Under the pieces are notes generated by a model that made no database searches, was not told where the DNA came from, and saw only the letters and a list, made by a program, of their open reading frames with translations. Of a stretch of DNA of 24,687 nt, positions 1,169-23,782 are shown one piece after another (the first letter of the stretch is position 1; each line of letters opens with the position of its first letter). The position numbers and the translations under genes are program-made. This stretch comes from a virus (lineage: Duplodnaviria > Heunggongvirae > Uroviricota > Caudoviricetes): positions 1-24,687 of IMG/VR virus record IMGVR_UViG_2711768042_000001; one strand, 5' to 3'.

Positions 1169-1843
1169 TTGAATACTGCCGCCAACTATGGCGGCTTTAT
1201 TTTGCATGATACTATTACCACAACGGTAACTATTACCACGGTGGTTATGATGCCTGCTGAACCTAAAGCCTATAAACGCAAATCAACGCAATTTAAGCCA
1301 CTAACAGCAATGCAGGAGGCTTATTGCCAGTCATACATCAAAACGCCTGAAAACCAGACTCAGGCAGCGATTAATGCAGGATTCTCCCCAAATACAGCGG
1401 CAGTTAAAGCCAGTGTCATGATGCGCGATGAACGCATTCAAAAACGGATTGCCGAGTTGATGGAGGAGCGCAACAAACGAATGCGCGTCAGTGCTGATTA
1501 CGTTCTCATGCGCCTGGTGGAGATCGACCAGATGGACGTGATCGACATCCTCAACGACGATGGGAGCCTTAAGCCAATCCGCGAGTGGCCGAAAATCTGG
1601 CGCACTACGCTTAGCGGCTTTGATCTGTCATCGACCATCATGAACATGAACGAGGATTCGATAGAGACAATCCTCAAAAAAATTAAATGGCCTGACAAGG
1701 TGAAGAACCTCGAACTGATTGGTAAGCACGTCGACGTCAACGCATTCAAAGAACGCCTGGATGTTAATGTGAATGTGACAATTGCTGATCGCATAGCAGC
1801 AGCCAGGAAGCGACTCAAAGAACGTCAGGATGGTAATCAGTGA
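1169..1843 (+). CDS. terminase small subunit (Terminase_2/P27-like)
   Basis: Sits immediately upstream of the large terminase with overlapping stop/start; region AMQEAYCQSYIKTPENQTQAAINAGFSPNTAAVKASVMMRDERIQKRIAEL resembles small-terminase DNA-binding domains. True start may be ATG 1247 (MMPAEPK). Confidence 0.6.
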   Translation: MNTAANYGGFILHDTITTTVTITTVVMMPAEPKAYKRKSTQFKPLTAMQEAYCQSYIKTPENQTQAAINAGFSPNTAAVKASVMMRDERIQKRIAELMEERNKRMRVSADYVLMRLVEIDQMDVIDILNDDGSLKPIREWPKIWRTTLSGFDLSSTIMNMNEDSIETILKKIKWPDKVKNLELIGKHVDVNAFKERLDVNVNVTIADRIAAARKRLKERQDGNQ

Positions 1844-3315
1844 CAGATACAGTGTTATCTCCTGAAGAGCAGTTGATCGAGGATATTGCAGGGTTTACTC
1901 ACGATCCGCTTGGTTATGCCCTCTATGCGTTCCCGTGGGGGGAAGAGGGGACTGAACTGGCACATGCTACTGGCCCACGTCAGTGGCAGGCTGATGCGTT
2001 CCGAGAGATACGTGATCACCTGCAGAATCCAGAGACGCGCTATCAGCCGCTTATGCTGGCACGCGCTTCTGGTCACGGTATTGGTAAATCCGCATTCATC
2101 TCAATGCTGATCAACTGGGGCATGTCCACTTGCGAGGATTGTAAGGTCGTGGTGACCGCCAACACCGACAACCAGCTACGAACGAAGACCTGGCCGGAAA
2201 TTATCAAGTGGTCGAACCTTGCTATCACGAAAGACTGGTTTACCTGTACCGCTACCGCGATGTACAGCAATGATCCTGGACACGACAAGCGGTGGCGAGC
2301 TGACGCAATCCCCTGGTCTGAGCACAACACTGAGGCATTCGCCGGACTACACAACGAGCGCAAACGCATCATCGTGGTGTTTGATGAAGCGTCGAACATT
2401 GCGGATCTGGTGTGGGAAGTTGCCGAAGGTGCGCTAACGGACGAAGACACTGAGATTATCTGGGTGGCGTTCGGAAACCCGACGCGTAATACCGGACGTT
2501 TCCGTGAATGTTTCCGCAAGTATAAACACCGCTGGAAAACTGCGCAGATTGACAGTCGGACGGTGGAAGGTACCAACAAACAGCAGTTGCAGAAATGGGT
2601 TGATGACTACGGGGAAGACAGCGACTTCGTTAAAATCCGTGTGCGTGGCATATTCCCTGATGCATCTGAATTGCAGTTTATCCCTACCGGTCTTACTGAC
2701 GAGGCAATGAAACGGGTGGTAACCGCTGCGCAGGTTGCACATGCTCCGGTGATAATCGGCGTTGACCCGGCATACTCCGGCGTTGATGACGCTGTGATAT
2801 ACCTGCGGCAGGGGCTACACAGTAAGGTGCTGTGGACTGGCAACAAGACTACCGACGATCTGATTATGGCGAAGCGTATCGCTGACTTTGAAGACCAGTA
2901 TCAGGCTGACGCGGTGTTCATCGACTTCGGTTACGGAACCGGTTTGAAGTCAATCGGTGACGGCTGGGGTCGTACATGGCAACTTGTTCCGTTCGGTGGC
3001 GCGTCTACTGACCCGCAGATGCTTAACAAGCGTGGGGAGATGTTCAACTCATGCAAGACATGGCTGAGGCTCGGCGGCATGCTGGATGACCGGGAAACAG
3101 CGGACGACCTGTCGACGGCAGAGTACAAAGTTCGCGTGGACGGTAAAATCGTTATCGAACCGAAGGAAGATATCAAAGAGCGACTTGGGCGTTCGCCGGG
3201 GAAAGGCGATGCGCTATTGCTGACGTTTGCTTTCCCGGTCTCGAAACGCATAAATATACCAGGACAGCAGAACCAGCAAGGCAAGGCCATCACAGATTAC
3301 GATCCCTATGCTTAA
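1840..3315 (+). CDS. terminase large subunit
   Basis: GTG start at 1840 overlaps terS stop (GTGA). 491 aa with P-loop-like ASGHGIGKSAF and Walker B-like IIVVFDEASNI; size and position typical of TerL. Confidence 0.85.
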   Translation: MTDTVLSPEEQLIEDIAGFTHDPLGYALYAFPWGEEGTELAHATGPRQWQADAFREIRDHLQNPETRYQPLMLARASGHGIGKSAFISMLINWGMSTCEDCKVVVTANTDNQLRTKTWPEIIKWSNLAITKDWFTCTATAMYSNDPGHDKRWRADAIPWSEHNTEAFAGLHNERKRIIVVFDEASNIADLVWEVAEGALTDEDTEIIWVAFGNPTRNTGRFRECFRKYKHRWKTAQIDSRTVEGTNKQQLQKWVDDYGEDSDFVKIRVRGIFPDASELQFIPTGLTDEAMKRVVTAAQVAHAPVIIGVDPAYSGVDDAVIYLRQGLHSKVLWTGNKTTDDLIMAKRIADFEDQYQADAVFIDFGYGTGLKSIGDGWGRTWQLVPFGGASTDPQMLNKRGEMFNSCKTWLRLGGMLDDRETADDLSTAEYKVRVDGKIVIEPKEDIKERLGRSPGKGDALLLTFAFPVSKRINIPGQQNQQGKAITDYDPYA

Positions 3316-3860: not shown

Positions 3861-4023
3861 GAACTGGAAGCAATGAGTTATGCCTTCCGTGGCTGTACTG
3901 GTTTACAGCATGAAGTCATCGCAATGGCGTCCTGCTGTAAAAAGGGCGGTAATAGTCCTTCAAGGGAAACTATCACCGCCAAGCACCTGGAACTTCTGGC
4001 ATCACGGTCCTTAGGCGTGATTC

Positions 4024-4100
4024 TGGCGTGGCATGCAGGATTCGAACCTGCGACCAACCGCTTAGAAGGCGGTTGCTCTGTCCAACTGAGCTAATGCCAC
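4024..4100 (-). tRNA. tRNA-Arg (anticodon UCU, decodes AGA), phage-encoded
   Basis: Reverse complement folds as a canonical cloverleaf: acceptor GTGGCAT/ATGCCAC, D-arm GCTC-AGTTGGACA-GAGC, anticodon arm ACCGC-CTTCTAA-GCGGT (anticodon TCT), T-arm GCAGG-TTCGAATC-CTGC, discriminator G and encoded CCA. Differs from E. coli argU as I recall it (from memory, not a comparison). Confidence 0.9.
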
Positions 4101-4422: not shown

Positions 4423-4437
4423 TTACCTGAAAGGTAA
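4423..4437. promoter_or_regulatory. palindromic motif TTACC-TGAAA-GGTAA (candidate operator), site 1 of 6
   Basis: Exact string; same motif class recurs at 20015, 20601, 22348 (imperfect), 23388, 23768, always intergenic. Confidence 0.4.
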
Positions 4438-13714: not shown

Positions 13715-16422
13715 TGCCAGTCGTACCAACAGTATCCGGACGTCAGGTGCAAAGTCGTGGTGTGCAAACCGGTGGTTTTCAGACCTTCGATGTTCCTCAA
13801 GCAGGTCAGGTGCTGGCGAATGTCGCAGATCAGTATGCGGTGGCATATGGTGAAGCCAGGCAGAAAGCGAATGTTGCATTGTCTCAGGATGCCATCCTTC
13901 AGCTTAATCAGCGCAGCAATGAACGTCTTTATAACCCTCAAACCGGTTTTTATGCACAACAAGGCAAAAATGCGATTGGTAAGGGGCAAGAGTACATATC
14001 TGGATTTGATCAGGATGTGGAAGAAATAGCTGCTTCATTGACTGATGAAGCAGCAAGAAATATGTTTTTGCAACAAGCCAGAACACAGAAAATTCAGTTC
14101 AGTACTGGAGTTCTCAGACATGAGATAGGGCAGACAAATGCCTATGAAGATGAGCAATATCAGGCAACGAGAAAATTATGGATACAAAATGAAGCGGATG
14201 CCTGGAATGACCCGCAAACTGCCACTTTAGCCAGAAATTCCAGAATGGTAGCCATTGCTAGATATGGAGCTGCCAGGGGATGGTCACAAGAACGCATTCT
14301 GGAAGAAATAGAAAGTGATGATCGCCGTGCCACAGAAATGCGGGCGAAGAATTATGCCGCTGCCAATCCAGAAGGATGGCTAAATGGTCTGTTTCAGAAA
14401 AATGATTCTGGAGGCATGGACATGCGTGCCATACGCCTTGTTGAATCAGGTGATCGACATTTTAATCCTGATGGTAGTCTTCTTGAAGGACCGATAACAT
14501 CTTCTGGAGAGAGAGCCCAGGGGAAATACCAGTTAATGCCGGGCACAGGGAAAGAACTGGCGGCCAAGCGTGGCGTTAAATACAACCCTACGGACGAACA
14601 ACAGCATGAAATGCTCGCCAGTGACTATGTAAATCAACTGTATGGTAAGTACGGCTCCGAAATATTGACCGGAGCAGCATATAACTGGGGGATGGGTAAC
14701 GTGGATAAACTGATCGCCAAAGTCGGTGATCCACGTAAAGGTGAAATATCAGAAGAAGAATTTATCCGAAATCTTCCATCAGAAACACAAGGGTGGCTTT
14801 CCCGATATAGAAAAAATAAAACTGGAATGGATCCGCTGACTATTTATCAAATAGATAACCTTGCTAATAGTCAGATAGAAAAGCAAAGGAAGTTAATATT
14901 AGAACAGCTTGAGCCAGCTATTAATAACACCATGGCCCAGCTATATAACGGTGAGGTTCCAGATTATATACCGGCTCAGGAGACCATCATCAGGGGGTAT
15001 GGAAAAAACGCAGATAAAATAATCAATCAACTGGATATAGCGATTGATAACGCGAGAATATTCCAGGCAATTCAGTATTTGCCTCCTTCTCAGCAGCAAG
15101 AAGAAATGCAGAAAGTGAAGCCTGAGGTTAACGATCCTCACTATGCGTTAAAACTCGATGCTTACGGAAAATTGTCTGCATTGCTTCAGAGATCAAATGA
15201 AGCAATTCAGGCGCAACGGGATTCACGCAGATTTAATGAGGCGCTGACAATAGGTGAAAAATTAGACCCAAGCAACAAGTCAATGCAGAAAGCTGCTGAT
15301 TACACAGAAATGGCGCAGAACTTTCGTATTAATGATGCCTCCACTCATGATGGGGTTGTTCGGCTTGTGGCTCAGACTGGCATAATGCCTTCGCAGGTCA
15401 TCACGCAGCTTTCAGCAGTATCCCGATCCAGCAATCAGGAAGTGGTTAAAAATGCGGCGGAACTGTTTAGTCGGTTATATGAAACAGACAATGCATCTAT
15501 TGGAAATATGCCGAAGGATATGCAGGGTTTTTATCTGACTGTTAAGCAACTAACTGATGCAGGGATGTCTTCTGATGCTGCTATTGTGGAAGCGCAGAGT
15601 AAGACATACAACCAGACAGATGCACTAAGGGCGCAGCTCTCATCTGTTCAGAGTACAAGAGAATACAAAAAAGAGCGTGACAGCGCAGCCAATTCTGCTG
15701 TCAGCAATATGGCTCATTGGCTTCGCTGGGATCCGTCTGCGGATGACCAGACGCCGGAAGCAGCGCTCTTTCGCAATGACTATCAGATGCTGTATGACGT
15801 TAACTATCGCCTTGCTGGTGGTAACGCTGACGTAGCGAAGCAAATGACCAACCAGCAGATAGCCCGCACCTGGAGTATCAGCGAGGTCAACGGGGAAGCA
15901 CAGTTTATGAAATATGCACCGGAGGCGCTTTATCAATATGGGCCGTCAGGTTGGATTGCAGCGCAATGGAAGGCTGAAAAAGAAAAAATCATGTATGGCG
16001 ATGACTTACATAAACCGGCTCCTTCATTTAACCGACCTTCAACTGAGGCTGGTGCATTGGGACTGAATAAGCCACGCTCACTGGTTGGAGGTGAGTTGAT
16101 TCTCGTTCCTGACTTATCAACTCCGAGAGATAAGCTTTATTCAGTTGTGATCAGAACAAAAGATAAAAATGGTATTACGAGGGATGATTTATTTTATGAC
16201 AAGCATGGAAGACAGATGCGCTGGGGGCCATCACTAGAAGATTGGGAACCTTATAAGAAAATGCAGCAGGAACGGGAGCAGCACGAGCAGGAAGAAATTA
16301 TGCGTGGACAGGCTATACGAAACTTCAAAGACAAGCATCGCGCTCTGGATGAGCAGTATCAGCGCCTGCATAACGAACGTATGGACAAATTTAAAGATTA
16401 CTTTTCGTGGGGATCTAAATAA
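13714..16422 (+). CDS. internal virion (ejection) protein with soluble lytic transglycosylase domain
   Basis: ATG 13714 with GGAGG upstream (track ORF begins earlier at 13639, overlapping the previous gene). SLT motif block: RLVESGDRHFNPDGS...GKYQLMPGTGKELAAKRG...AAYNWGMGNV (catalytic E-S motif, QLMP, AYNxG). Confidence 0.8.
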   Translation: MPVVPTVSGRQVQSRGVQTGGFQTFDVPQAGQVLANVADQYAVAYGEARQKANVALSQDAILQLNQRSNERLYNPQTGFYAQQGKNAIGKGQEYISGFDQDVEEIAASLTDEAARNMFLQQARTQKIQFSTGVLRHEIGQTNAYEDEQYQATRKLWIQNEADAWNDPQTATLARNSRMVAIARYGAARGWSQERILEEIESDDRRATEMRAKNYAAANPEGWLNGLFQKNDSGGMDMRAIRLVESGDRHFNPDGSLLEGPITSSGERAQGKYQLMPGTGKELAAKRGVKYNPTDEQQHEMLASDYVNQLYGKYGSEILTGAAYNWGMGNVDKLIAKVGDPRKGEISEEEFIRNLPSETQGWLSRYRKNKTGMDPLTIYQIDNLANSQIEKQRKLILEQLEPAINNTMAQLYNGEVPDYIPAQETIIRGYGKNADKIINQLDIAIDNARIFQAIQYLPPSQQQEEMQKVKPEVNDPHYALKLDAYGKLSALLQRSNEAIQAQRDSRRFNEALTIGEKLDPSNKSMQKAADYTEMAQNFRINDASTHDGVVRLVAQTGIMPSQVITQLSAVSRSSNQEVVKNAAELFSRLYETDNASIGNMPKDMQGFYLTVKQLTDAGMSSDAAIVEAQSKTYNQTDALRAQLSSVQSTREYKKERDSAANSAVSNMAHWLRWDPSADDQTPEAALFRNDYQMLYDVNYRLAGGNADVAKQMTNQQIARTWSISEVNGEAQFMKYAPEALYQYGPSGWIAAQWKAEKEKIMYGDDLHKPAPSFNRPSTEAGALGLNKPRSLVGGELILVPDLSTPRDKLYSVVIRTKDKNGITRDDLFYDKHGRQMRWGPSLEDWEPYKKMQQEREQHEQEEIMRGQAIRNFKDKHRALDEQYQRLHNERMDKFKDYFSWGSK

Positions 16423-19400
16423 TGCCGTTCTATCCTGTATCTGAATCAAACAATAACGGATTTATTTCTGCTGGTCTCGCCATTCCTGAACCTGATGAAC
16501 AGAGTTTTGATGTGCATCCGCCAGAAGGTAAGAACCCTGAACCTCGTCCCAAAGAGCCTTCATTGCTTGCCGCAGCAATACGACAGAACAATATTCTGGC
16601 TGGTTTTTTCCGTCCTGCCAGACAGTTTGAACCGGTCGAGGGTTATAACCCATATGCTGATAAAAATGAGTTGCACGGTTATGAATACTGGGGGGCGAAA
16701 TTTGCAGATTCCCGATCGCCAGAGGAAACGGCGTGGATTAAGCAGCAGATAGATGATGAAAATGAAGATCGGCGTTTTATCTCTGAAGCAGGCTTAGCTG
16801 GTGGAATTGCCAGTGCAACAGCGATGCTTTTTGACCCGGTTACTGTTGCGTCAATGTTTATCCCAGGTGCTCAAGGAGGGGCACTGGCGCGTATTGGCTC
16901 ACAGATTGCGATTGGTGCTGCCGGTACTGCATTAAGCGAGGTTGTACTGAATAATCAGCAAATAACACGCTCATGGGGTGAAAGTGCCGCTCACGTTGCA
17001 GCGGGTGCGATGATGAGCGGCGTGTTTGCCAGTGCTGGTGTTGCGCTTTCGCCATCCGTCCGGGCTGCAGCCACACGTGAGGTTGCTGATGCTCTTGATA
17101 ATATGAGCATTACATCAGCGACTGACAGGGCTGCCGCTTCGCTTTCCGATGGTGGTAGTGTTGGTGCTATGAAAATTGATACAGCGACTCTGGATGATTT
17201 AACCCCTGTTTCCGGTGGGTGGGTTGGAAAGGCTGCATGGAAAGCAGGGAGCTATCTTACTCCTTTGACAAGGTTAATGGAGTCTCCGTCCAAGACGGTG
17301 CGAAAAACAACGCTGGAGTTAGCCGAAAATAATTTCACCCTTAAAGGAAATGAAAGGGGGATTGAAACACCGGTAGCTGTAGAAACCCGTACACGTGGAT
17401 GGCAGCGTGAAGAAGCTGCTGTTGTTGTCGGAAATAAACAGGCATACGCAAAGTATAAAGCTGATGGTGGTGACATGAGTTTTGATTCATTTCGTCAGCA
17501 GGTTGGGAATGCTATGCGAAGCGGTGATGTGCATGCTAATCCTGTTGTTCAGGAAACGGCGCAGGCGATGCGAACTGTATTAAATCGGGTGAAAGTTGAA
17601 ATGCAAAAGCTTGGTTTATTGCCGCCAGATGAAGAACTGAAAGCATTAGGCCAGGCAAGCTATTTCCCACGCATATATAAAGTTGGAAAAATAATCAGTG
17701 AACGCGATAAATTTCGACGTATTTTGGTTGACTGGTGGTCGAGAGGAAATAAAACACTGGATCCTGAGGATGCTGAAATTGCAGCGGATATCGTAATTAA
17801 TAAAATTACTGGTGCTAAGGTTCCACAGGATTTTGTCAGCGTATTTTCTGTAAAAGCCGCAGGTAGTACGAAAGAAAGAACATTAAATGTTCCTGATAGT
17901 CTTATCAGGGATTATCTTGAAAGTGATGTGAATTACGTGCTGCAACGTCATATCCGTGAAGCGGCAGCAGAGATTGAGTTGACGAGAACATTTGGCAAAC
18001 GAACTATGACTGAGCGTCTGCAATTAATTGAGGACGAATATGACAGTCTGTTACGGGAAGTGCCTGAAAAAATAAAGGCGAAATATGACGAAAGTGTGGC
18101 AAATCTGAAAGCACGTTATGAGAGCAATGGTGAAGTTGTTCCTCAGGGTAAACTCGATTCATTAATGCGAAAGTACGAAAAGGAATTACGGAAAGAACAG
18201 TCCAGACTTTCAAAATCAAGAGCAAATGATCTCAGAGACATAACAGCATTACGCGATCGTCTTGTTGGTACATATGGTATGCCTGATGATCCGTCTTCGT
18301 TTTTTGTTCGTGCTGGCGCTTTTCTGCGGGATGTGAACTTCACGACCAAACTCGGTGGAATGACAGTATCAGCTATTCCAGATCTGGCCAGAGGGGTTAT
18401 GGTTAATGGTTTCCGTAACACCATGAAAGGCTATGCTTCTCAGATATCCCAATCACCGGCATTTAAGGCCAGCAAAGAAGAGATGTTGAAGATGGGGATT
18501 GGATTGGAAACTGTACTACATTCACGTTCTCGTGCAATTGGTGATCTTGTTGACAGTTCTTCCAGGACAACAGCAGTCGAAGCAGGAATGGAGCGAATTA
18601 CTGATGCCTTCGGCAAGCTGACACTCATGGATCGATTTAATGACATAAACAAATCCATGAACGGAATGCTCACGTCAGACGGTATTTTGTCTGGTGCGTT
18701 TTCTGCACGTCGCATGGCAAAACTCGGTATCAACGACAATATGGCGGCGCGTATTCGCAGTGAGTTCGAGAAACATGGTGAGGTAATTGATGGATGGCAC
18801 ATTGGTAACTTTGATAAATGGGACGATCAGTACGTTGCCGGAGTATTCCAGTCAGCGGTTCTGAAAGACGTTAATAACACTATCATCACCCCCGGTATTG
18901 GTGACACACCTTTATGGGCGAGTACTCCAATGGGGCGAACGATATTTCAGTTTAAATCATTCACAACGGCTTCATACAACCGTGCGCTACTTGGTGGGTT
19001 ACAGGAAGGAACTGCGCAATTTTATTATGGCACTGCATTTCAGATTGCTCTTGGCTCACTGGTCTATGCGCTAAAAGAAGCATCGAAAGGGAAAAATGTT
19101 GACTGGTCACCAGAGAAGCTGGTGCTTGAGGGTATAGATAGATCCGGTATTCTTGGGCCATTGATGGAATATAACAACATGGCTGAAAAGGCTACTGGTG
19201 GTGCTGTTGGGCTGGGGGCTTTATTTGGCACTGGCACACAGTCTAGGTATGCCAGTCGTGGATTCGTAGGATCTCTATTCGGACCGTCATTTGGTCTTGC
19301 GGATAGCATCATTGATGTGACCGCAGGAGTGTTGAATGGTGATGCCGGTGATCGTATTGTGCATAATGTCCGAACCCTGATACCAGGCAATAACCTGTTC

Positions 19401-19445
19401 TGGATTGCGCCACTAATAAACCAAGTGGATCCGGTGATGCGTTAA
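16422..19445 (+). CDS. large internal virion/DNA-injection protein (gp16 position)
   Basis: 1007 aa, ATG overlaps upstream stop (TAATG); last gene of the + strand structural block before the accessory locus. Confidence 0.6.
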   Translation: MPFYPVSESNNNGFISAGLAIPEPDEQSFDVHPPEGKNPEPRPKEPSLLAAAIRQNNILAGFFRPARQFEPVEGYNPYADKNELHGYEYWGAKFADSRSPEETAWIKQQIDDENEDRRFISEAGLAGGIASATAMLFDPVTVASMFIPGAQGGALARIGSQIAIGAAGTALSEVVLNNQQITRSWGESAAHVAAGAMMSGVFASAGVALSPSVRAAATREVADALDNMSITSATDRAAASLSDGGSVGAMKIDTATLDDLTPVSGGWVGKAAWKAGSYLTPLTRLMESPSKTVRKTTLELAENNFTLKGNERGIETPVAVETRTRGWQREEAAVVVGNKQAYAKYKADGGDMSFDSFRQQVGNAMRSGDVHANPVVQETAQAMRTVLNRVKVEMQKLGLLPPDEELKALGQASYFPRIYKVGKIISERDKFRRILVDWWSRGNKTLDPEDAEIAADIVINKITGAKVPQDFVSVFSVKAAGSTKERTLNVPDSLIRDYLESDVNYVLQRHIREAAAEIELTRTFGKRTMTERLQLIEDEYDSLLREVPEKIKAKYDESVANLKARYESNGEVVPQGKLDSLMRKYEKELRKEQSRLSKSRANDLRDITALRDRLVGTYGMPDDPSSFFVRAGAFLRDVNFTTKLGGMTVSAIPDLARGVMVNGFRNTMKGYASQISQSPAFKASKEEMLKMGIGLETVLHSRSRAIGDLVDSSSRTTAVEAGMERITDAFGKLTLMDRFNDINKSMNGMLTSDGILSGAFSARRMAKLGINDNMAARIRSEFEKHGEVIDGWHIGNFDKWDDQYVAGVFQSAVLKDVNNTIITPGIGDTPLWASTPMGRTIFQFKSFTTASYNRALLGGLQEGTAQFYYGTAFQIALGSLVYALKEASKGKNVDWSPEKLVLEGIDRSGILGPLMEYNNMAEKATGGAVGLGALFGTGTQSRYASRGFVGSLFGPSFGLADSIIDVTAGVLNGDAGDRIVHNVRTLIPGNNLFWIAPLINQVDPVMR

Positions 19446-20014: not shown

Positions 20015-20029
20015 TTACCTTAAAGGTAA
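20015..20029. promoter_or_regulatory. palindromic motif TTACC-TTAAA-GGTAA, site 2 of 6
   Basis: Exact string 20-35 nt upstream of the 19994 start on the minus strand. Confidence 0.4.
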
Positions 20030-20054: not shown

Positions 20055-20453
20055 TTAAGTGTATACCTCCTGTTGCTCAGTGGTGATTTTACCCGGCAAC
20101 ACCTTTTTAGCTTTGTGCGGGTTAACCACATGGCCTTTAGTCCAGTACTCGTAGAGCACATCGTCACACTCTTCCTGATACTGGATTACCTTGTCGCGGA
20201 TTTCAGGGCGGACTTTGTTAGGGCTGATGCTGTTCAACCAAGCTGCCAATTTTCGTAAAGCCATACAAATCATGGCTTGCACCCCACCGGCAGAAGGTAT
20301 GGTGATTTCCACCATACCCTTCGAGAAGCGTTGAGAAATCTTCTTATGTTGAGATTTCCAGTCTAGCCCCATTCCCTCAACGATAGGTTTCATTGGGGTA
20401 TACGGTTCGCCGTTGTGATTGACAACATAAAGCTCTGCGCCGTGGAATGGCAC
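20055..20453 (-). CDS. antirepressor N-terminal-domain-like protein (P22_AR_N-like), possibly truncated
   Basis: N-terminus FHGAELYVVNHNGEPYTPMKPIVEGMGLDWKSQ...VIQYQEECDDVLYEYWTKG has the style of P22-antirepressor N-domains (from memory). Starts with GTG, no clear SD, only 132 aa, so may be a remnant. Confidence 0.45.
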   Translation of the reverse strand: MPFHGAELYVVNHNGEPYTPMKPIVEGMGLDWKSQHKKISQRFSKGMVEITIPSAGGVQAMICMALRKLAAWLNSISPNKVRPEIRDKVIQYQEECDDVLYEYWTKGHVVNPHKAKKVLPGKITTEQQEVYT

Positions 20454-20590: not shown

Positions 20591-20886
20591 GCGCTTATCA
20601 TTACCTTTGCGGTAAATTTACATTGCATTCCTCTTGTGCCATAGTAATCGGGCACTGGCAAAATCCAGTGTCGGGATTGGTCTCCCGGATTACTAAGTGG
20701 CGCATACCACGCCAGACGTGGTTTTTTTATGCGTATAGCACAGTCATGCCAGAATTATGGTGGGCTGAATGGGGGTCCGAAAGGACGCCGGTACCACTTA
20801 GGCCGGTAAGACCAACTCCGTTCAGTTCACCACCATCTGATTGGTCTCAGCGGTGGTGATGTAATTCGCTAAGTGGAGACGCCATC
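20591..20886 (+). promoter_or_regulatory. structured ~295-nt leader upstream of the AntA-like gene (copy 1 of an inverted pair)
   Basis: About 85-90 percent identical to the reverse complement of 23122-23412; contains TTACC-TTTGC-GGTAA (20601-20615), two stem-loops, an intrinsic terminator, then complementary sites AGACCAA (20809-20815) and TTGGTCT (20841-20847) before the RBS GGAG. Confidence 0.7.
20651..20727 (+). ncRNA. candidate C4-like antisense sRNA, copy 1 (SL1 CACUGG-CAAAAU-CCAGUG; SL2 CGGGA-UUGGUC-UCCCG; terminator CCACG-CCAGA-CGUGG then U7)
   Basis: Three consecutive hairpins ending in a U-run, about 77 nt; SL2 loop UUGGUCU is complementary to AGACCAA in the downstream leader. 5' end not determined. 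Confidence 0.45.
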
Positions 20887-21543
20887 ATGAACGCTCAACT
20901 CATCCCCGTATTCAACGGCACTATATCTAACGAAACAGCCCTACTTTGTAATGCCCGCGATCTGCACGCTTTTTTAGGTGTTAAAAAGGTGTTTGCAGCA
21001 TGGATTACAAATCGCATTTCAGAATACGAATTCATTGAAAATCAAGACTATATTTTGCTTTCCAATTTGGGAAAGCAAACATCTGGTAGAGGCGGCCACA
21101 ACCGCAAAGAGTACCACCTCACCCTTGATACAGCCAAAGAGCTGGCGATGGTCGAGCGTAACGAAAAAGGTCGCCAGATACGACGCTACTTCATTGAATG
21201 CGAGAAACGTTTAAGACAACAAGAAACAAAGGTGGAGAAGGTCTTGTCAGGCTTCATGCCAGCCATTATGGAGGCGATCAAGCTGGAAGACAAAAAAGAA
21301 TACAGCGCCCAACTGAAGCCCGGCTACCGCAGCCTGATTCATTCGCCGTCTGGTGTTCTCGGCCTGACGGAGAACTCACTGCTGATGAATTTGCTGAACC
21401 AGTTACAGGAAGACGGGCATGATGTATCGGGCGCGGCAGCGGAGCTGACCACCATGTTCTGCTACATCGTCGGTGTGAGCAAATGCCTGCGTGATATCCA
21501 GACGCACGCGGAGTACATCAACGACAAGGCAGGGTTCTTCTGA
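20887..21543 (+). CDS. antirepressor, AntA-type N-domain plus shared C-terminal domain
   Basis: ATG with GGAG 8 nt upstream; N-domain ...[16 protein letters not shown]...[30 protein letters not shown] matches the AntA pattern; the C-terminal 80 aa are near-identical to the C-terminus of the 22435..23121 gene. Confidence 0.75.
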
Positions 21544-21568
21544 CGAGCGGCGGCACAGGGATGTGCAA
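21301..21568. repeat. inverted repeat arm A (antirepressor C-domain coding plus 25 bp of 3' flank)
   Basis: About 94 percent identical to the reverse complement of 22410-22677. Confidence 0.8.
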
Positions 21569-21580
21569 AACGGAACTATC

Positions 21581-21592
21581 GTGACATGTCAC
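21581..21592. repeat. 12-bp perfect palindrome GTGACATGTCAC, copy 3 of 3
   Basis: Exact string between the antA stop and its terminator. Confidence 0.9.
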
Positions 21593-21593
21593 A

Positions 21594-21617
21594 GGCCGCT
21601 TTCGCGGCCTTGTTTTT
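21594..21617 (+). terminator. rho-independent terminator (GGCCGC-UUUC-GCGGCC then TTGTTTTT)
   Basis: 6-bp GC stem with tetraloop and T-run directly after the AntA-like gene. Confidence 0.7.
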
Positions 21618-21654
21618 AACGAATGCCACCGCCACCCGGGCGGGAATCCGCAGA

Positions 21655-21678
21655 CACAAAAAAGCCCGCGTCGCGGGC
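21655..21678 (-). terminator. rho-independent terminator for the minus-strand membrane-protein gene (GCCCGCG-AC-GCGGGC then U6 on minus strand)
   Basis: Plus strand AAAAAAGCCCGCGTCGCGGGC at 21658-21678, abutting the stop of the 21679..22218 gene. Confidence 0.65.
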
Positions 21679-22218
21679 TTACCAAAACTTGTACCACGGG
21701 GATTTATCCTTCAATGGACAATCCTTCCATCGTGTGGCCAACCATTCATATTCTTTAAAATATGTGTTTATGTTTTCTTTTTCTCTAATAGCTTGTATAA
21801 GAGGTAGCGCAATCTGATAGTTATTTACAACGGAGCTGTAAAATACTTCCTTAATCATGGTCTCATCATAAGTTTTCCGCTTCACGCTCACAGCCATGCG
21901 TTCGTAGAAACCTAGACAGTAAATTATTTCTCTCTTCTCTATCTTTTCTTCATCCGTAAGATCAGCCTGCCCATTGCTTGGATACATATAAGAGCGGAAT
22001 GATTTGTTCGATTCGTGAATGCGGCGCATAGTAGATAGGCCTTTCTTATAATCTACATCAAACCTGCTTTCACCAAGGAATACTGAAGTGTGTACTTTTC
22101 TCGCTGTATTTACATTATAAATAATAGTAGCGATAGCTATGAACAAGCCAAGCGAAACCGCGACTGCACTTACGATTTGAGCCACAGCCATGGCAAATTG
22201 CATTTCTTCACTTAACAC
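21679..22218 (-). CDS. membrane-anchored accessory protein (N-terminal TM helix), unknown function; exclusion/abortive-infection candidate
   Basis: GTG 22218 with GGAGA 6 nt upstream (alternative ATG at 22203); TM segment FAMAVAQIVSAVAVSLGLFIAIATIIY; own terminator; AT-rich; lies between the two convergent antirepressor cassettes. Confidence 0.6.
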   Translation of the reverse strand: MLSEEMQFAMAVAQIVSAVAVSLGLFIAIATIIYNVNTARKVHTSVFLGESRFDVDYKKGLSTMRRIHESNKSFRSYMYPSNGQADLTDEEKIEKREIIYCLGFYERMAVSVKRKTYDETMIKEVFYSSVVNNYQIALPLIQAIREKENINTYFKEYEWLATRWKDCPLKDKSPWYKFW

Positions 22219-22347
22219 AAACTGTCTCCAGACATGAAAACGGGGCCTAATGGCCCCGTCATTAAACTATCCGAATGTTAAACGCCTTCGTACTCGTCAA
22301 ATTTTCTCATGTGGGCTCCTCCTGTATCGGTGCCTAATCGCTATGGA

Positions 22348-22362
22348 TCACCCGTAAGGTAA
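22348..22362. promoter_or_regulatory. imperfect palindromic motif TCACC-CGTAA-GGTAA, site 4 of 6
   Basis: One half-site mismatch relative to TTACC-N5-GGTAA; intergenic, about 140 nt upstream of the 22218 start. Confidence 0.3.
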
Positions 22363-22409
22363 TAGTACTCTATTCACCCCCCTGTCTGCAATCGTACAGA
22401 ATTATTTAA

Positions 22410-22677
22410 AGGCACATCCCTGTGCCGCCGCCCGTCAGAAGACCCCTGCCTTGTCGTTGATGTATTCCGCGTGGGTCTGGATATCACGCAGGCATTTACT
22501 CACACCGACGATGTAGCAGAACATGGTGGTCAGTTCCGCCGCCGCGCCCGATACGTCGTGCCCGTCTTCCTGTAACTGGTTCAGCAGATTCATCAGCAGT
22601 GAGTTCTCCGTCAGGCCGAGAACACCAGACGGCGAATGAATCAGGCTGCGGTAGCCGAGCTTCAGTGGGGCGCTGTA
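22410..22677. repeat. inverted repeat arm B (antirepressor C-domain coding plus 3' flank)
   Basis: Reverse complement about 94 percent identical to 21301-21568. Confidence 0.8.
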
Positions 22678-23121
22678 GGTTTTGTTCTCTACCTTCATTG
22701 CCTGCATCACTGCTGATGCTGTGGCGCTGGCTACCTGGTCGGCAACCATCTTTATGCGTTCTTCCTGCGGGAGCGAGTTTTTAATGTAACTTCCGGTGCG
22801 GCGGATCTGAGGAAGAACCTCACCTGTAACCCATTTACGAAAGCGGTAGGGGGTAGTGCCTGGTGTCACCGCATCGCGGCAGCGGAGGATCAGTGTGTAG
22901 AGGCCTGACTCGTTGATAATATTGGTTTCGCCTTGACGGCCTAAGTTAAATTTAGCCCTTTCATCATCATCAAGAGATTTTATTGACATAGTGGGGTTTG
23001 TCAGTTGAAGAGCTTTAATAACGTCTTTGGCAACAAACCAAGGATTTCCATCAATAACAATGGCTCGAATGGTTGCTTCTGATTCAAAATGAAAAACAGA
23101 TGGGGTTACGTTAGCAGTCAT
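22435..23121 (-). CDS. antirepressor, Bro-N-type N-domain plus shared C-terminal domain
   Basis: ATG 23121 with AGGTGAT upstream (track ORF extends to 23274 but that N-terminal extension overlaps the conserved leader). Bro-N pattern: IDGNPWFVAKDVIKAL...NESGLYTLILRCR...YRFRKWVTGEVLPQIRRTGSY. Confidence 0.75.
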   Translation of the reverse strand: MTANVTPSVFHFESEATIRAIVIDGNPWFVAKDVIKALQLTNPTMSIKSLDDDERAKFNLGRQGETNIINESGLYTLILRCRDAVTPGTTPYRFRKWVTGEVLPQIRRTGSYIKNSLPQEERIKMVADQVASATASAVMQAMKVENKTYSAPLKLGYRSLIHSPSGVLGLTENSLLMNLLNQLQEDGHDVSGAAAELTTMFCYIVGVSKCLRDIQTHAEYINDKAGVF

Positions 23122-23274
23122 AGCGATCACCTTTGTAGTTAGGTTAATCACCACTACCGACGCCAATCGGTTGGTGGTGAACTGTGCAGGGTTGGCGTAA
23201 CCGGCTACAAAGGACCCGGCGCACCTTTCGGTGCCCCCACACAGCCCACCATAGAATAGGTGCGCTTTACACAT

Positions 23275-23352
23275 AAAAAAACCGCTTATGCGGCATATGT
23301 GCCTCTGTAGTAACTCGGGACGCCAATCCCGGCACTGGATTTTGCCAGTGCC
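23275..23352 (-). ncRNA. candidate C4-like antisense sRNA, copy 2 (SL2 loop UUGGCG; terminator CCGC-AUAA-GCGG then U7)
   Basis: Same three-hairpin architecture as copy 1; loop UUGGCGU is complementary to ACGCCAA (plus 23192-23198, read on minus) in its own leader. Confidence 0.45.
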
Positions 23353-23387
23353 CGATTACTATGGCACAAGAGGAGTGCGATGTAAAT

Positions 23388-23402
23388 TTACCGCAAAGGT
23401 AA
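23388..23402. promoter_or_regulatory. palindromic motif TTACC-GCAAA-GGTAA, site 5 of 6
   Basis: Exact string at the upstream end of leader copy 2, mirroring 20601-20615 in copy 1. Confidence 0.4.
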
Positions 23403-23433
23403 ATATAAGCACTCCATTTGGTAATTGCAAACC

Positions 23434-23691
23434 TTATCTGGTTTGTTTTCGTAATTGTTCGGCACAATAGTCGAGATGTGTTTGCAGATCCTGCATAGAC
23501 ATCTGTGAGCTGGTGACGTAGTTAATCAGTGCAGTCAGTTCGGCAAGTGGGCCATCGACATTAAATCCATCCTTATCGAGATCCCGGAGTAATTTCATCA
23601 AGTGCGATCCCTCCACCAGTGACCTGACGCCTCCCGGCGTGTGAATCCTTTCGGTAAATCCGTCTTCCAGTGGATAGTGATACTGCTGCAT
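23434..23691 (-). CDS. small protein (about 85 aa) homologous to the antirepressor C-terminal domain only
   Basis: ATG 23691 with GGAG 6 nt upstream (track start 23814 is probably too long because it would cover the LexA box and operator motifs). YHYPLEDGFTERIHTPGGVRSLVEGSHLMKLLRDLDKDGFNVDGPLAELT aligns with [50 protein letters not shown]. Confidence 0.55.
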   Translation of the reverse strand: MQQYHYPLEDGFTERIHTPGGVRSLVEGSHLMKLLRDLDKDGFNVDGPLAELTALINYVTSSQMSMQDLQTHLDYCAEQLRKQTR

Positions 23692-23710: not shown

Positions 23711-23730
23711 AACTGTATATTTATACAGTA
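23711..23730. promoter_or_regulatory. LexA (SOS) box: AACTGTATATTTATACAGTA
   Basis: CTGT-N8-ACAG with an AT-rich spacer, 18 of 20 matches to the E. coli consensus TACTGTATATATATACAGTA; 20-40 nt upstream of the 23691 start on the minus strand. Confidence 0.6.
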
Positions 23731-23767: not shown

Positions 23768-23782
23768 TTACCTGAAAGGTAA
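23768..23782. promoter_or_regulatory. palindromic motif TTACC-TGAAA-GGTAA, site 6 of 6
   Basis: Exact string, identical core to site 1 (4423-4437). Confidence 0.4.

Follow-up and report, generated by a model that had tools for sequence, protein, structure and literature searches.

Nested inverted repeats as the probable shared ends of two convergent RNA-gated antirepressor cassettes in a phiV10-like Escherichia coli prophage

The viral record IMGVR_UViG_2711768042_000001, analysed here over its 24,687 nucleotides (nt) and called the window, carries two nested pairs of inverted repeats around a gene for a membrane protein, which raises the question of what these repeats are and whether they serve to invert the DNA between them. 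This stretch corresponds to one half, packaging to tailspike, of an E. coli podovirus prophage that resembles phiV10/TL-2011b (genus Uetakevirus, phiV10/epsilon15-like). The repeats belong to an anti-immunity region that fills the gap from the last internal-virion gene (16422-19445, 1007 amino acids (aa)) to the tailspike gene (from 23888). We consider it probable that this region consists of two convergent RNA-gated antirepressor cassettes with shared ends, and that homologous recombination swaps and inverts these cassettes, in the manner of a reshuffling and not of a switch.

Apart from the inner pair and a pair formed by the leaders of the two cassettes, the entire 24.7-kb window holds no inverted repeats of 35 nt or more. 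The inner pair was delimited by repeat search and base-by-base comparison:

21285-21566, plus strand: left inner arm, made of an Ant-like domain and a tail, the 23 nt that follow the stop codon, in which a small hairpin lies
22412-22693, minus strand: right inner arm

Each arm is 282 nt long, the arms are 845 nt apart and they differ by 18 mismatches (93.6% complementary). A preliminary description of this DNA had given about 270 bp, 94 percent identity and an extension of about 25 bp past the stop codons, which is essentially right; the limits that it placed at 21301 and 22677 were too narrow, the true arms reaching about 16 nt further out. Similarity sets in sharply where unrelated N-domains meet a common C-domain and is lost 23 nt after the stop codon; these 23 nt (21544-21566) contain one mismatch. 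Repeats this long and this identical cannot have a chance origin. In a core of 214 nt (21321-21534) the arms show 8 differences, all 8 synonymous, and the longest stretch of perfect identity is 70 nt. The 23-nt tail marks the cassette boundary. Its two copies (21544-21566 and 22412-22434) hold a possible 6-bp hairpin, GGCACA-GGGA-TGTGCC, which could serve as a weak terminator or contribute to stability; in most copies elsewhere the conserved tail is followed by TTTAAATAATT.

The arms are the 3' ends of two genes located on either side of the membrane-protein gene:

20887-21543, plus strand: left antirepressor gene, with an AntA N-domain (aa 22-92; Pfam AntA, 3.9e-26) and an Ant-like C-domain (aa 137-213)
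22435-23121, minus strand: right antirepressor gene, with a Bro-N domain (aa 18-104; Pfam Bro-N, 2.9e-20) and an Ant-like C-domain (aa 147-223)
21679-22218, minus strand: DUF4760 membrane-protein gene with an N-terminal hydrophobic helix (Pfam DUF4760, 1.6e-30)

Pfam therefore agrees with the arrangement first described, an AntA-type gene on the plus strand and a Bro-N-type gene on the minus strand, including DUF4760 between the arms. Both C-domains match residues 3-79 of 86 of PDB entry 5D50_E (6.1e-13 for the left and 2e-13 for the right), and phrog_450 covers the C-domains in both long genes, Ant-type matches to it being at 1e-34 to 1e-48. The left antirepressor corresponds over its full length to phrog_377 and the right one to phrog_130; PHROGs already has families with this architecture of an N-domain plus an Ant module (phrog_377, phrog_130 and phrog_1760). 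Judged by these matches, the common C-domain is a complete copy of the SPC32H-type antirepressor Ant fused to variable N-domains. The C-domain was surveyed in 98 copies, with a mean pairwise nucleotide identity of 93% between genomes, and in related prophages its partners are AntA, two Bro-N types, P22_AR_N with a middle region, and others. The domain shuffling announced by the preliminary description was thus confirmed, and the comparison with related prophages that it had proposed did reveal alternative combinations of N-domain and C-domain.

The function of the C-domain may be read from its relatives. PMC9638917 presents the Ant of phage SPC32H as a tetrameric protein which binds two dimers of Rep and takes apart the Rep tetramer, the DNA-binding form; PMC7380047, citing Kim and Ryu 2013, places Ant synthesis after LexA cleavage. 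The phiV10 repressor is a full-length homologue of SPC32H Rep (5D50_A, 4e-42), and we infer that the C-domain could bind the Rep of the prophage. The right cassette region is about 96% identical in nucleotides to a stretch carrying the Bro-N ORF4 anti-repressor of phage vB_EcoP_ZX5. When this Bro-N anti-repressor was overexpressed, the prophage titre went from 10^9 to 10^6 (PMC9782041).

The outer pair, 20593-20860 and 23147-23410, is made of four collinear blocks about 78% identical overall. The best block (20593-20695/23308-23410) is 103 nt long at 91% identity; the others are 20713-20742/23261-23290, 20756-20775/23234-23253 and 20786-20860/23147-23221. The preliminary description had listed these segments as inverted leader copies, and they are a real pair; it had not recognised them as antisense RNAs. 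By their Rfam matches, they are IsrK plus C4 antisense-RNA modules of the phage P1 c4/Gifsy-1 isrK type, accompanied by predicted promoters, operators and terminators:

20601-20615: palindrome TTACCTTTGCGGTAA abutting the -35 element of the left cassette, a probable prophage-repressor operator (from motif over-representation)
20617-20645, plus strand: left sigma-70-like promoter, TTTACA, 17 nt, TG-CATAGT (promoter scan)
20652-20728, plus strand: left IsrK-like RNA (Rfam RF01394, 65.5 bits against a gathering score of 50)
20706-20728, plus strand: left IsrK intrinsic terminator (terminator scan)
20753-20837, plus strand: left C4-type antisense RNA (Rfam RF01695, 61.2 bits against a gathering score of 45)
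21593-21610, plus strand: intrinsic terminator of the left antirepressor gene (terminator scan)
23170-23256, minus strand: right C4-type antisense RNA (Rfam RF01695, 79.5 bits, same gathering score)
23275-23351, minus strand: right IsrK-like RNA (Rfam RF01394, 74.2 bits against 50)
23281-23294, minus strand: right IsrK terminator (terminator scan)
23358-23402, minus strand: right promoter-like site (23386-23358) and operator palindrome (23388-23402) (promoter and motif scans)

The transcription start predicted from the left promoter is the 5' end of the IsrK match, 20652, and both C4 matches are full length (1-87 of the 87 positions of the Rfam model). Only 49 nt separate the end of the left C4 (20837) from the ATG of ant (20887), which rules out a separate icd-like gene between them. 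An open reading frame (ORF) of 37 codons resembling orf45 of Gifsy-1 overlaps the left C4 RNA (20747-20859, plus strand) and is confined to that leader; its counterpart on the right starts with an ATG at 23274 (minus strand) and continues without a stop into the Bro-N gene, forming an ORF of 279 aa. At their 5' end the two cassettes share operator, promoter and IsrK/C4 scaffold, and at their 3' end the Ant domain and tail; with the cassettes placed tail to tail, these constant ends are the nested repeats.

C4-type RNAs would act through two short recognition elements, a' and b', with targets here called a1, b1, a2 and b2. These were located in each leader, with a' and b' unpaired in the minimum free energy fold:

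20677-20683, plus strand: left a1, UUGGUCU, in IsrK (complement of a')
20693-20700, plus strand: left b1, CUAAGUGG, in IsrK (complement of b')
20794-20801, plus strand: left b', CCACUUAG, in the loop of C4 hairpin 2
20809-20815, plus strand: left a', AGACCAA, just 3' of hairpin 2
20841-20847, plus strand: left a2 (exact complement of a')
20869-20876, plus strand: left b2, CUAAGUGG, overlapping the Shine-Dalgarno sequence 11-18 nt before the ATG (exact complement of b')
23320-23326, minus strand: right a1, in IsrK (complement of a')
23302-23310, minus strand: right b1, CUACAGAGG, in IsrK, pairing via one G-U (element matching)
23205-23213, minus strand: right b', CCUUUGUAG, in C4
23192-23198, minus strand: right a', ACGCCAA, in C4
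23160-23166, minus strand: right a2, UUGGCGU (complement of a')
23130-23138, minus strand: right b2, CUACAAAGG, overlapping the Shine-Dalgarno sequence (complement of b')

The complements of a' and b' thus occur twice in the cognate leader, inside IsrK and then 4 and 32 nt after C4, and exact element matching found none of them in the leader of the other cassette. From 5' to 3', each cassette is ordered as operator/promoter, IsrK (a1, b1 and terminator), C4 (a' and b'), a2 and b2 on the ribosome-binding site (RBS), N-domain and Ant domain. The AntA and Bro-N genes whose Shine-Dalgarno sequence is overlapped by b2 are of the kind that PHROGs annotates as anti-repressor Ant.

Conservation of these pairings was analyzed in 88 leader copies (72 distinct) from 85 loci. 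The left nucleotide anchor, the 3' end of the 1007-aa gene, was present in only 15 of these loci and a fixed stretch of 7 kb was therefore compared; many loci with a single cassette have a left part that carries no annotation. Three alleles of a and four of b were found, in seven combinations, and in essentially every copy a1/a2 and b1/b2 fit the a'/b' of the same leader. This three-way covariation constitutes strong comparative evidence that the predicted pairings are functional. Duplex energies of full-length C4 and leader did not separate cognate from non-cognate pairs because the common scaffold stems dominate, and specificity was judged by exact element matching and covariation instead. 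One leader, the left-middle leader (u17) of L016 and L087, is a hybrid: its a1, TTGGCGT, mismatches its own a', AGACCAA, and its a2 matches, which suggests a crossover between IsrK and C4 within the leader. At the 15 loci with two or three cassettes, co-resident cassettes never shared an a'/b' combination. As sharing would be expected by chance in about 19% of pairs and the loci are not independent, this is merely suggestive; selection might keep co-resident cassettes on non-identical RNA specificities.

A third copy of Ant stands alone between the right cassette, which it adjoins, and the tailspike gene, of which it lies directly upstream, and a fragment of another antirepressor gene precedes the left cassette:

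23434-23691, minus strand: free-standing small antirepressor of 85 aa, an SPC32H Ant orthologue (PDB 5D50_E, 4.1e-47)
23713-23728: LexA box CTGTATATTTATACAG, 22 nt upstream of the small ant start (canonical motif match)
23768-23782: operator palindrome of small ant (motif scan)
1215-1229, 4423-4437, 20015-20029, 20601-20615, 23388-23402 and 23768-23782: TTACC-N5-GGTAA sites of the window (motif scan)
20055-20453, minus strand: truncated P22_AR_N antirepressor gene (Pfam P22_AR_N, 1.3e-44)

The free-standing Ant resembles the common C-domain at 41% over 74 aa by BLASTP (7e-15) and at 36-41% overall. The preliminary description had identified neither this neighbouring copy under LexA control nor the SPC32H Ant fold of the C-domain. 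Neither leader contains a LexA box (CTGT-N8-ACAG); since this box is found only at the free-standing gene, the two long genes are Ant-domain fusions under a different control. The motif TTACC-N5-GGTAA has six sites in the window where none is expected, and four of them (20015, 20601, 23388 and 23768) precede the four transcription units of the region. In phiV10, with one mismatch allowed, 14 sites were found against 0.56 expected, two of them in the rep/cro-like intergenic region and others before early operons and the integrase gene. This distribution suggests that the motif is probably the operator of the SPC32H-type Rep, in which case inactivation of Rep would derepress the cassettes in a positive feedback. 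The truncated P22_AR_N gene is bracketed by the palindromes 20015-20029 and 20601-20615 and is the remnant of a third, P22-type cassette. L002 (1829-2731) and L003 (1828-2730) carry in the opposite orientation a full-length gene with P22_AR_N, a middle region and the same C-domain, under an Arc-family regulator as in P22 immI. L016 is a three-cassette locus in which the P22_AR_N fragment is flipped and located between two divergent leaders.

In the mechanism that we propose, the C4 RNA processed from the leader would pair with a2 and b2 and presumably block translation of its own antirepressor, and the IsrK part, carrying the same targets, would compete for C4. The left and right cassettes would be gated independently because they differ in a'/b' specificity. 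The free-standing Ant under LexA control would supply a trigger driven by the SOS response. Cassettes would be swapped between phages, and the segment occasionally inverted, presumably via host RecA or a phage RecE/RecT-like protein.

Several points weigh against this proposal. The orf45-like ORF of the left leader and the right frame that enters the Bro-N gene make it possible that direct occlusion of the RBS is not the sole mode of control, because IsrK in Gifsy-1 activates translation via orf45. With only 36-41% identity to the free-standing Ant, the C-domain might bind another repressor or serve in oligomerisation alone. The immunity region and the Rep gene are outside the window, for which reason the cognate Rep was deduced from relatives. 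Finally, the exact combination of parts of the window is absent from the 5,426 complete E. coli genomes in which junctions were searched.

Rearrangement of the cassettes was analyzed among related prophages (loci are designated by labels; L085 is phiV10 and L113 is E. coli UTME-14); a first scan of IMG/VR by itself had given 300 relatives. Firstly, L011 and L059, whose flanks are 99.7% and 97.0% identical, differ in the orientation of the 3,258 nt between the outer edges of the leaders: with one of the two inverted, this segment is 98.5% identical, compared to 72% in collinear alignment; the breakpoints are at the outer edge of the leaders, a few nt from the operator palindrome. Secondly, the complete genomes AH20E044 and CUVET21-H2 carry in opposite orientation a block of 2,366 nt (98.6%) comprising a C-domain, two cargo genes, an identical Bro-N protein and a leader. 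Thirdly, the left cassette of the window (20593-21566, 974 nt) has a counterpart at 97.8% identity in the cassette that L045 carries on the right and on the minus strand, and the Bro-N cassette of the window is on the left in strains UTME-9 and UTME-12. The junctions predicted for inversion were searched in the complete genomes. The left junction of an inversion at the outer arms was present in four genomes, in two of them at 100% coverage and 98% identity, and the right one, with the AntA cassette in the opposite position and orientation, in 72; the junction of an inversion at the inner arms, an AntA-C-domain followed by a co-directional DUF4760 gene, was present in 41. By comparison, the native left junction was found in three genomes and the native AntA/DUF4760 junction in none at a coverage of at least 80%. 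No relative was found to carry the exact full inversion of the window arrangement, the predicted junctions being found only separately. Combined, these results support the conclusion that the repeats mediate inversion and reshuffling on an evolutionary scale; the same cassettes and cargo are found in either position and orientation among relatives, presumably because the common ends allow homologous recombination.

The reach of this conclusion has limits. An inversion at the inner arms is indistinguishable from one crossover within the C-domain between two phages, and the simplest origin of the window itself would be one crossover in the left C-domain that linked a left part like that of AH20E044 to a middle and right part like those of F11/A33. 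Furthermore, the expectation that inversion exchanges the pairings of leader and N-domain did not hold, as crossovers at the outer edge of the leaders or in the C-domains keep these pairings; leader/N-domain pairings change via separate crossovers. The view of the arms as substrates for inversion was sustained by the inverted relatives and the predicted junctions, and no invertase was found: the ORFs from 19.4 to 24.7 kb, all accounted for, include no invertase or recombinase, and the annotation of phiV10 lists a tyrosine integrase only, no invertase, and a RecE/RecT-like fusion protein. Because each cassette has its own promoter and terminator, inversion should be largely neutral for antirepressor expression, and it changes at most which cassette lies upstream of the cargo gene.

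Does the segment also invert within a lysogen? It is possible, though we regard it as doubtful, that this is a recombinase-independent shuffling locus, in which any cassette of N-domain and C4 specificity could enter either slot or be flipped along with its cargo gene, and that it provides a combinatorial set of orthogonally gated antirepressors acting on one repressor, with selection for non-identical specificities and possibly a flip-flop in lysogens driven by RecET. A frequent flip-flop by RecA or RecET that would give mixed orientations in a lysogen population and change the cassette driving DUF4760, akin to phase variation in the absence of a dedicated invertase, appears unlikely when taken by itself. 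Both orientations and both kinds of predicted junction do exist among close relatives, the 70 nt of perfect identity in the inner pair and the 103-nt outer block at 91% would be enough for RecA or RecET, phages of the phiV10 type encode the RecE/RecT-like fusion, and DUF4760, which has no convincing promoter of its own, is always co-directional downstream of a cassette. However, the 6% divergence of the arms strongly cuts recombination when mismatch repair is active, orientation follows lineage, and co-resident arms are not homogenised as frequent exchange would make them. The closely related strains UTME-9, UTME-10, UTME-12 and UTME-14 were considered as a candidate for recent inversion and rejected, as all four share the same orientation and differ by IS3 insertions only. 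In UTME-14, one of these four near-clonal strains, IS3-family elements (1811-3024 and 5305-6518 of L113) interrupt two genes of one prophage, that for the 1007-aa virion protein and that for the left Bro-N antirepressor.

The age of the arms bears on a further explanation, a recent inverted duplication within the genome, followed by replacement of an N-domain and with gene conversion maintaining the similarity. This scenario, to which we give little credence, would account for the identity of 93.6% and for its sharp limits, the domain boundary on one side and a point 23 nt past the stop codon on the other. It was rejected on the comparison of 22 within-genome pairs of C-domains with all pairs from different genomes: copies in one genome show no greater similarity (mean pairwise identity of 0.904 within genomes and 0.930 between genomes), and therefore there is no homogenisation of co-resident copies by gene conversion or recent duplication. 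Each arm is also nearer to a relative than to its partner (the right arm is 99.6% identical to an arm of strain F11, the left arm about 99% to L040, compared to 93.4% between the two arms), the eight synonymous core differences point to long independent evolution under purifying selection, and the two leaders differ in C4 specificity. The arms are accordingly a lineage-wide constant module and not a recent duplication, and the same observations, together with the 6% divergence of the arms, make the word "recent", applied to the shuffling in the preliminary description, doubtful.

A programmed invertible element of the Gin/Cin/Hin or shufflon type beside the tailspike gene is very improbable. 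Inverted repeats do flank a segment near the tailspike gene, with a superficial likeness to the Mu G and P1 C segments, but no recombinase is encoded in this part of the window, phiV10 has only its tyrosine integrase, the arms are coding or regulatory sequences of 282 nt and about 270 nt diverged by 6-22% and not short crossover sites, and they split neither the tailspike gene nor any promoter. An assembly artefact, by which the middle segment would be mis-oriented across the repeat, is just as hard to credit: the exact junction of the AntA-C-domain, the 3' untranslated region (UTR) and the 3' end of DUF4760 was indeed found in no complete E. coli genome at a coverage of at least 80% and the alternative in 41, but the half formed by the AntA-C-domain and the 3' UTR is present in MLI109, strain 315 and AH20E044, the half running from the C-domain through the 3' UTR to DUF4760 is present in F11 and OkiPb01684, collinearity between L040 and the window extends over 4.85 kb and includes the junction, the 3' UTR and terminator are the normal sequence after left-position cassettes, and the 18 differences make the arms resolvable.

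The genes carried between the arms are an interchangeable cargo. The DUF4760 gene is followed by a terminator of its own:

21662-21680, minus strand: terminator of the DUF4760 gene (terminator scan)

That inversion would flip the membrane-protein gene, as first proposed, agrees with its occurrence in both orientations among relatives. DUF4760 and the alternative cargo genes are found in both orientations relative to the tailspike gene, and they are always co-directional with, and downstream of, one cassette. Comparison of the cargo loci (21679-22218 in the window, 2715-3607 in L001 and 5893-6691 in L112) revealed that the slot between the cassettes may hold in relatives a secreted or transmembrane protein of 53 aa, a hypothetical protein of 210 aa or a YafO-family toxin. 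PADLOC returned no defence-system match for DUF4760, for a membrane protein of 175 aa or for the antirepressors. Outside the anti-immunity region, a tRNA-Arg gene (anticodon TCT; 4024-4100, minus strand) is located among the packaging and head genes, with an SOS-box-like sequence, CTGTACTGGTTTACAG, nearby (3893-3908).

All components belong to known families, and the locus is no new kind of system. The closest likeness is to the immI region of P1 and P7 (c4-icd-ant) and to seqA-CI-seqC of P4, where an antisense RNA likewise comes from the leader of an antirepressor operon and has two short recognition elements with targets upstream and downstream of the RNA; the layout of the leaders described here also fits the c4-icd-ant region of P1/P7. 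Allelic recognition sequences would define separate specificities here, as they do in P1 and P7. In contrast to P1 immI, there is no icd-like gene here and b2 is directly on the ant RBS, and the effector domain of the antirepressor is unrelated to P1 Ant; unlike in P1 and P4, the host of the system is a podovirus, with two convergent cassettes of different specificity in one genome. P22 immI (mnt-arc-ant) occupies the same slot just upstream of the tailspike gene, and a P22_AR_N fragment is present in the window; relatives have the full P22-type Ant, the Arc-family regulator and a small divergent gene, whereas the window has a truncated P22-type gene and lacks arc/mnt. To our knowledge, P22 Ant itself has no SPC32H-Ant-like C-domain, unlike the P22-type Ant of the relatives. 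The G segment of Mu and the C segment of P1 (Gin/Cin) are similar in having inverted repeats around a segment near a receptor-binding protein gene and in occurring in nature in both orientations; they differ in that no invertase or short crossover sites are present here, the arms are long, diverged and homologous, inversion alters no coding sequence or promoter link, and orientation is fixed within lineages.

The isrK-orf45(STnc1160)-anrP locus of Gifsy-1, which its authors liken to the P4 seqA/CI immunity RNA, also has an IsrK with a terminator, a processed stable RNA and an antirepressor read by terminator read-through (PMC4825925), and its orf45 has a counterpart in the left leader described here. 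IsrK of Gifsy-1 activates in trans through translational coupling via orf45, and AnrP leads to AntQ toxicity; here, by contrast, there is a single direct target on the RBS, another antirepressor architecture and two mirrored copies. The Rep/Ant system of SPC32H (an epsilon15-like Salmonella podovirus; PDB 5D50/5D4Z) is from the same phage group, and its orthologue with a LexA box stands in the window beside the tailspike gene; the long genes differ from it in fusing Ant behind Bro-N or AntA under C4/IsrK and not LexA control. With respect to what could be found, the pairing of two apparently orthogonal cassettes, the C4 target predicted directly on the RBS, the putative Ant module with interchangeable N-domains and the documented polymorphism of orientation appear to be new.

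With these assignments, the nested repeats become a readable design in which two RNA-gated antirepressors and one SOS-gated antirepressor would present the same putative repressor-binding module. The at least seven co-varying specificities of C4 loop and target form a natural set for tests of orthogonality, for heteroimmunity and for RNA regulatory parts. The locus also offers a concrete case in which conserved module ends permit E. coli prophages both to exchange regulatory cassettes and to invert them, a matter of relevance to the diversification of induction circuits and to cross-talk among prophages that share one cell.

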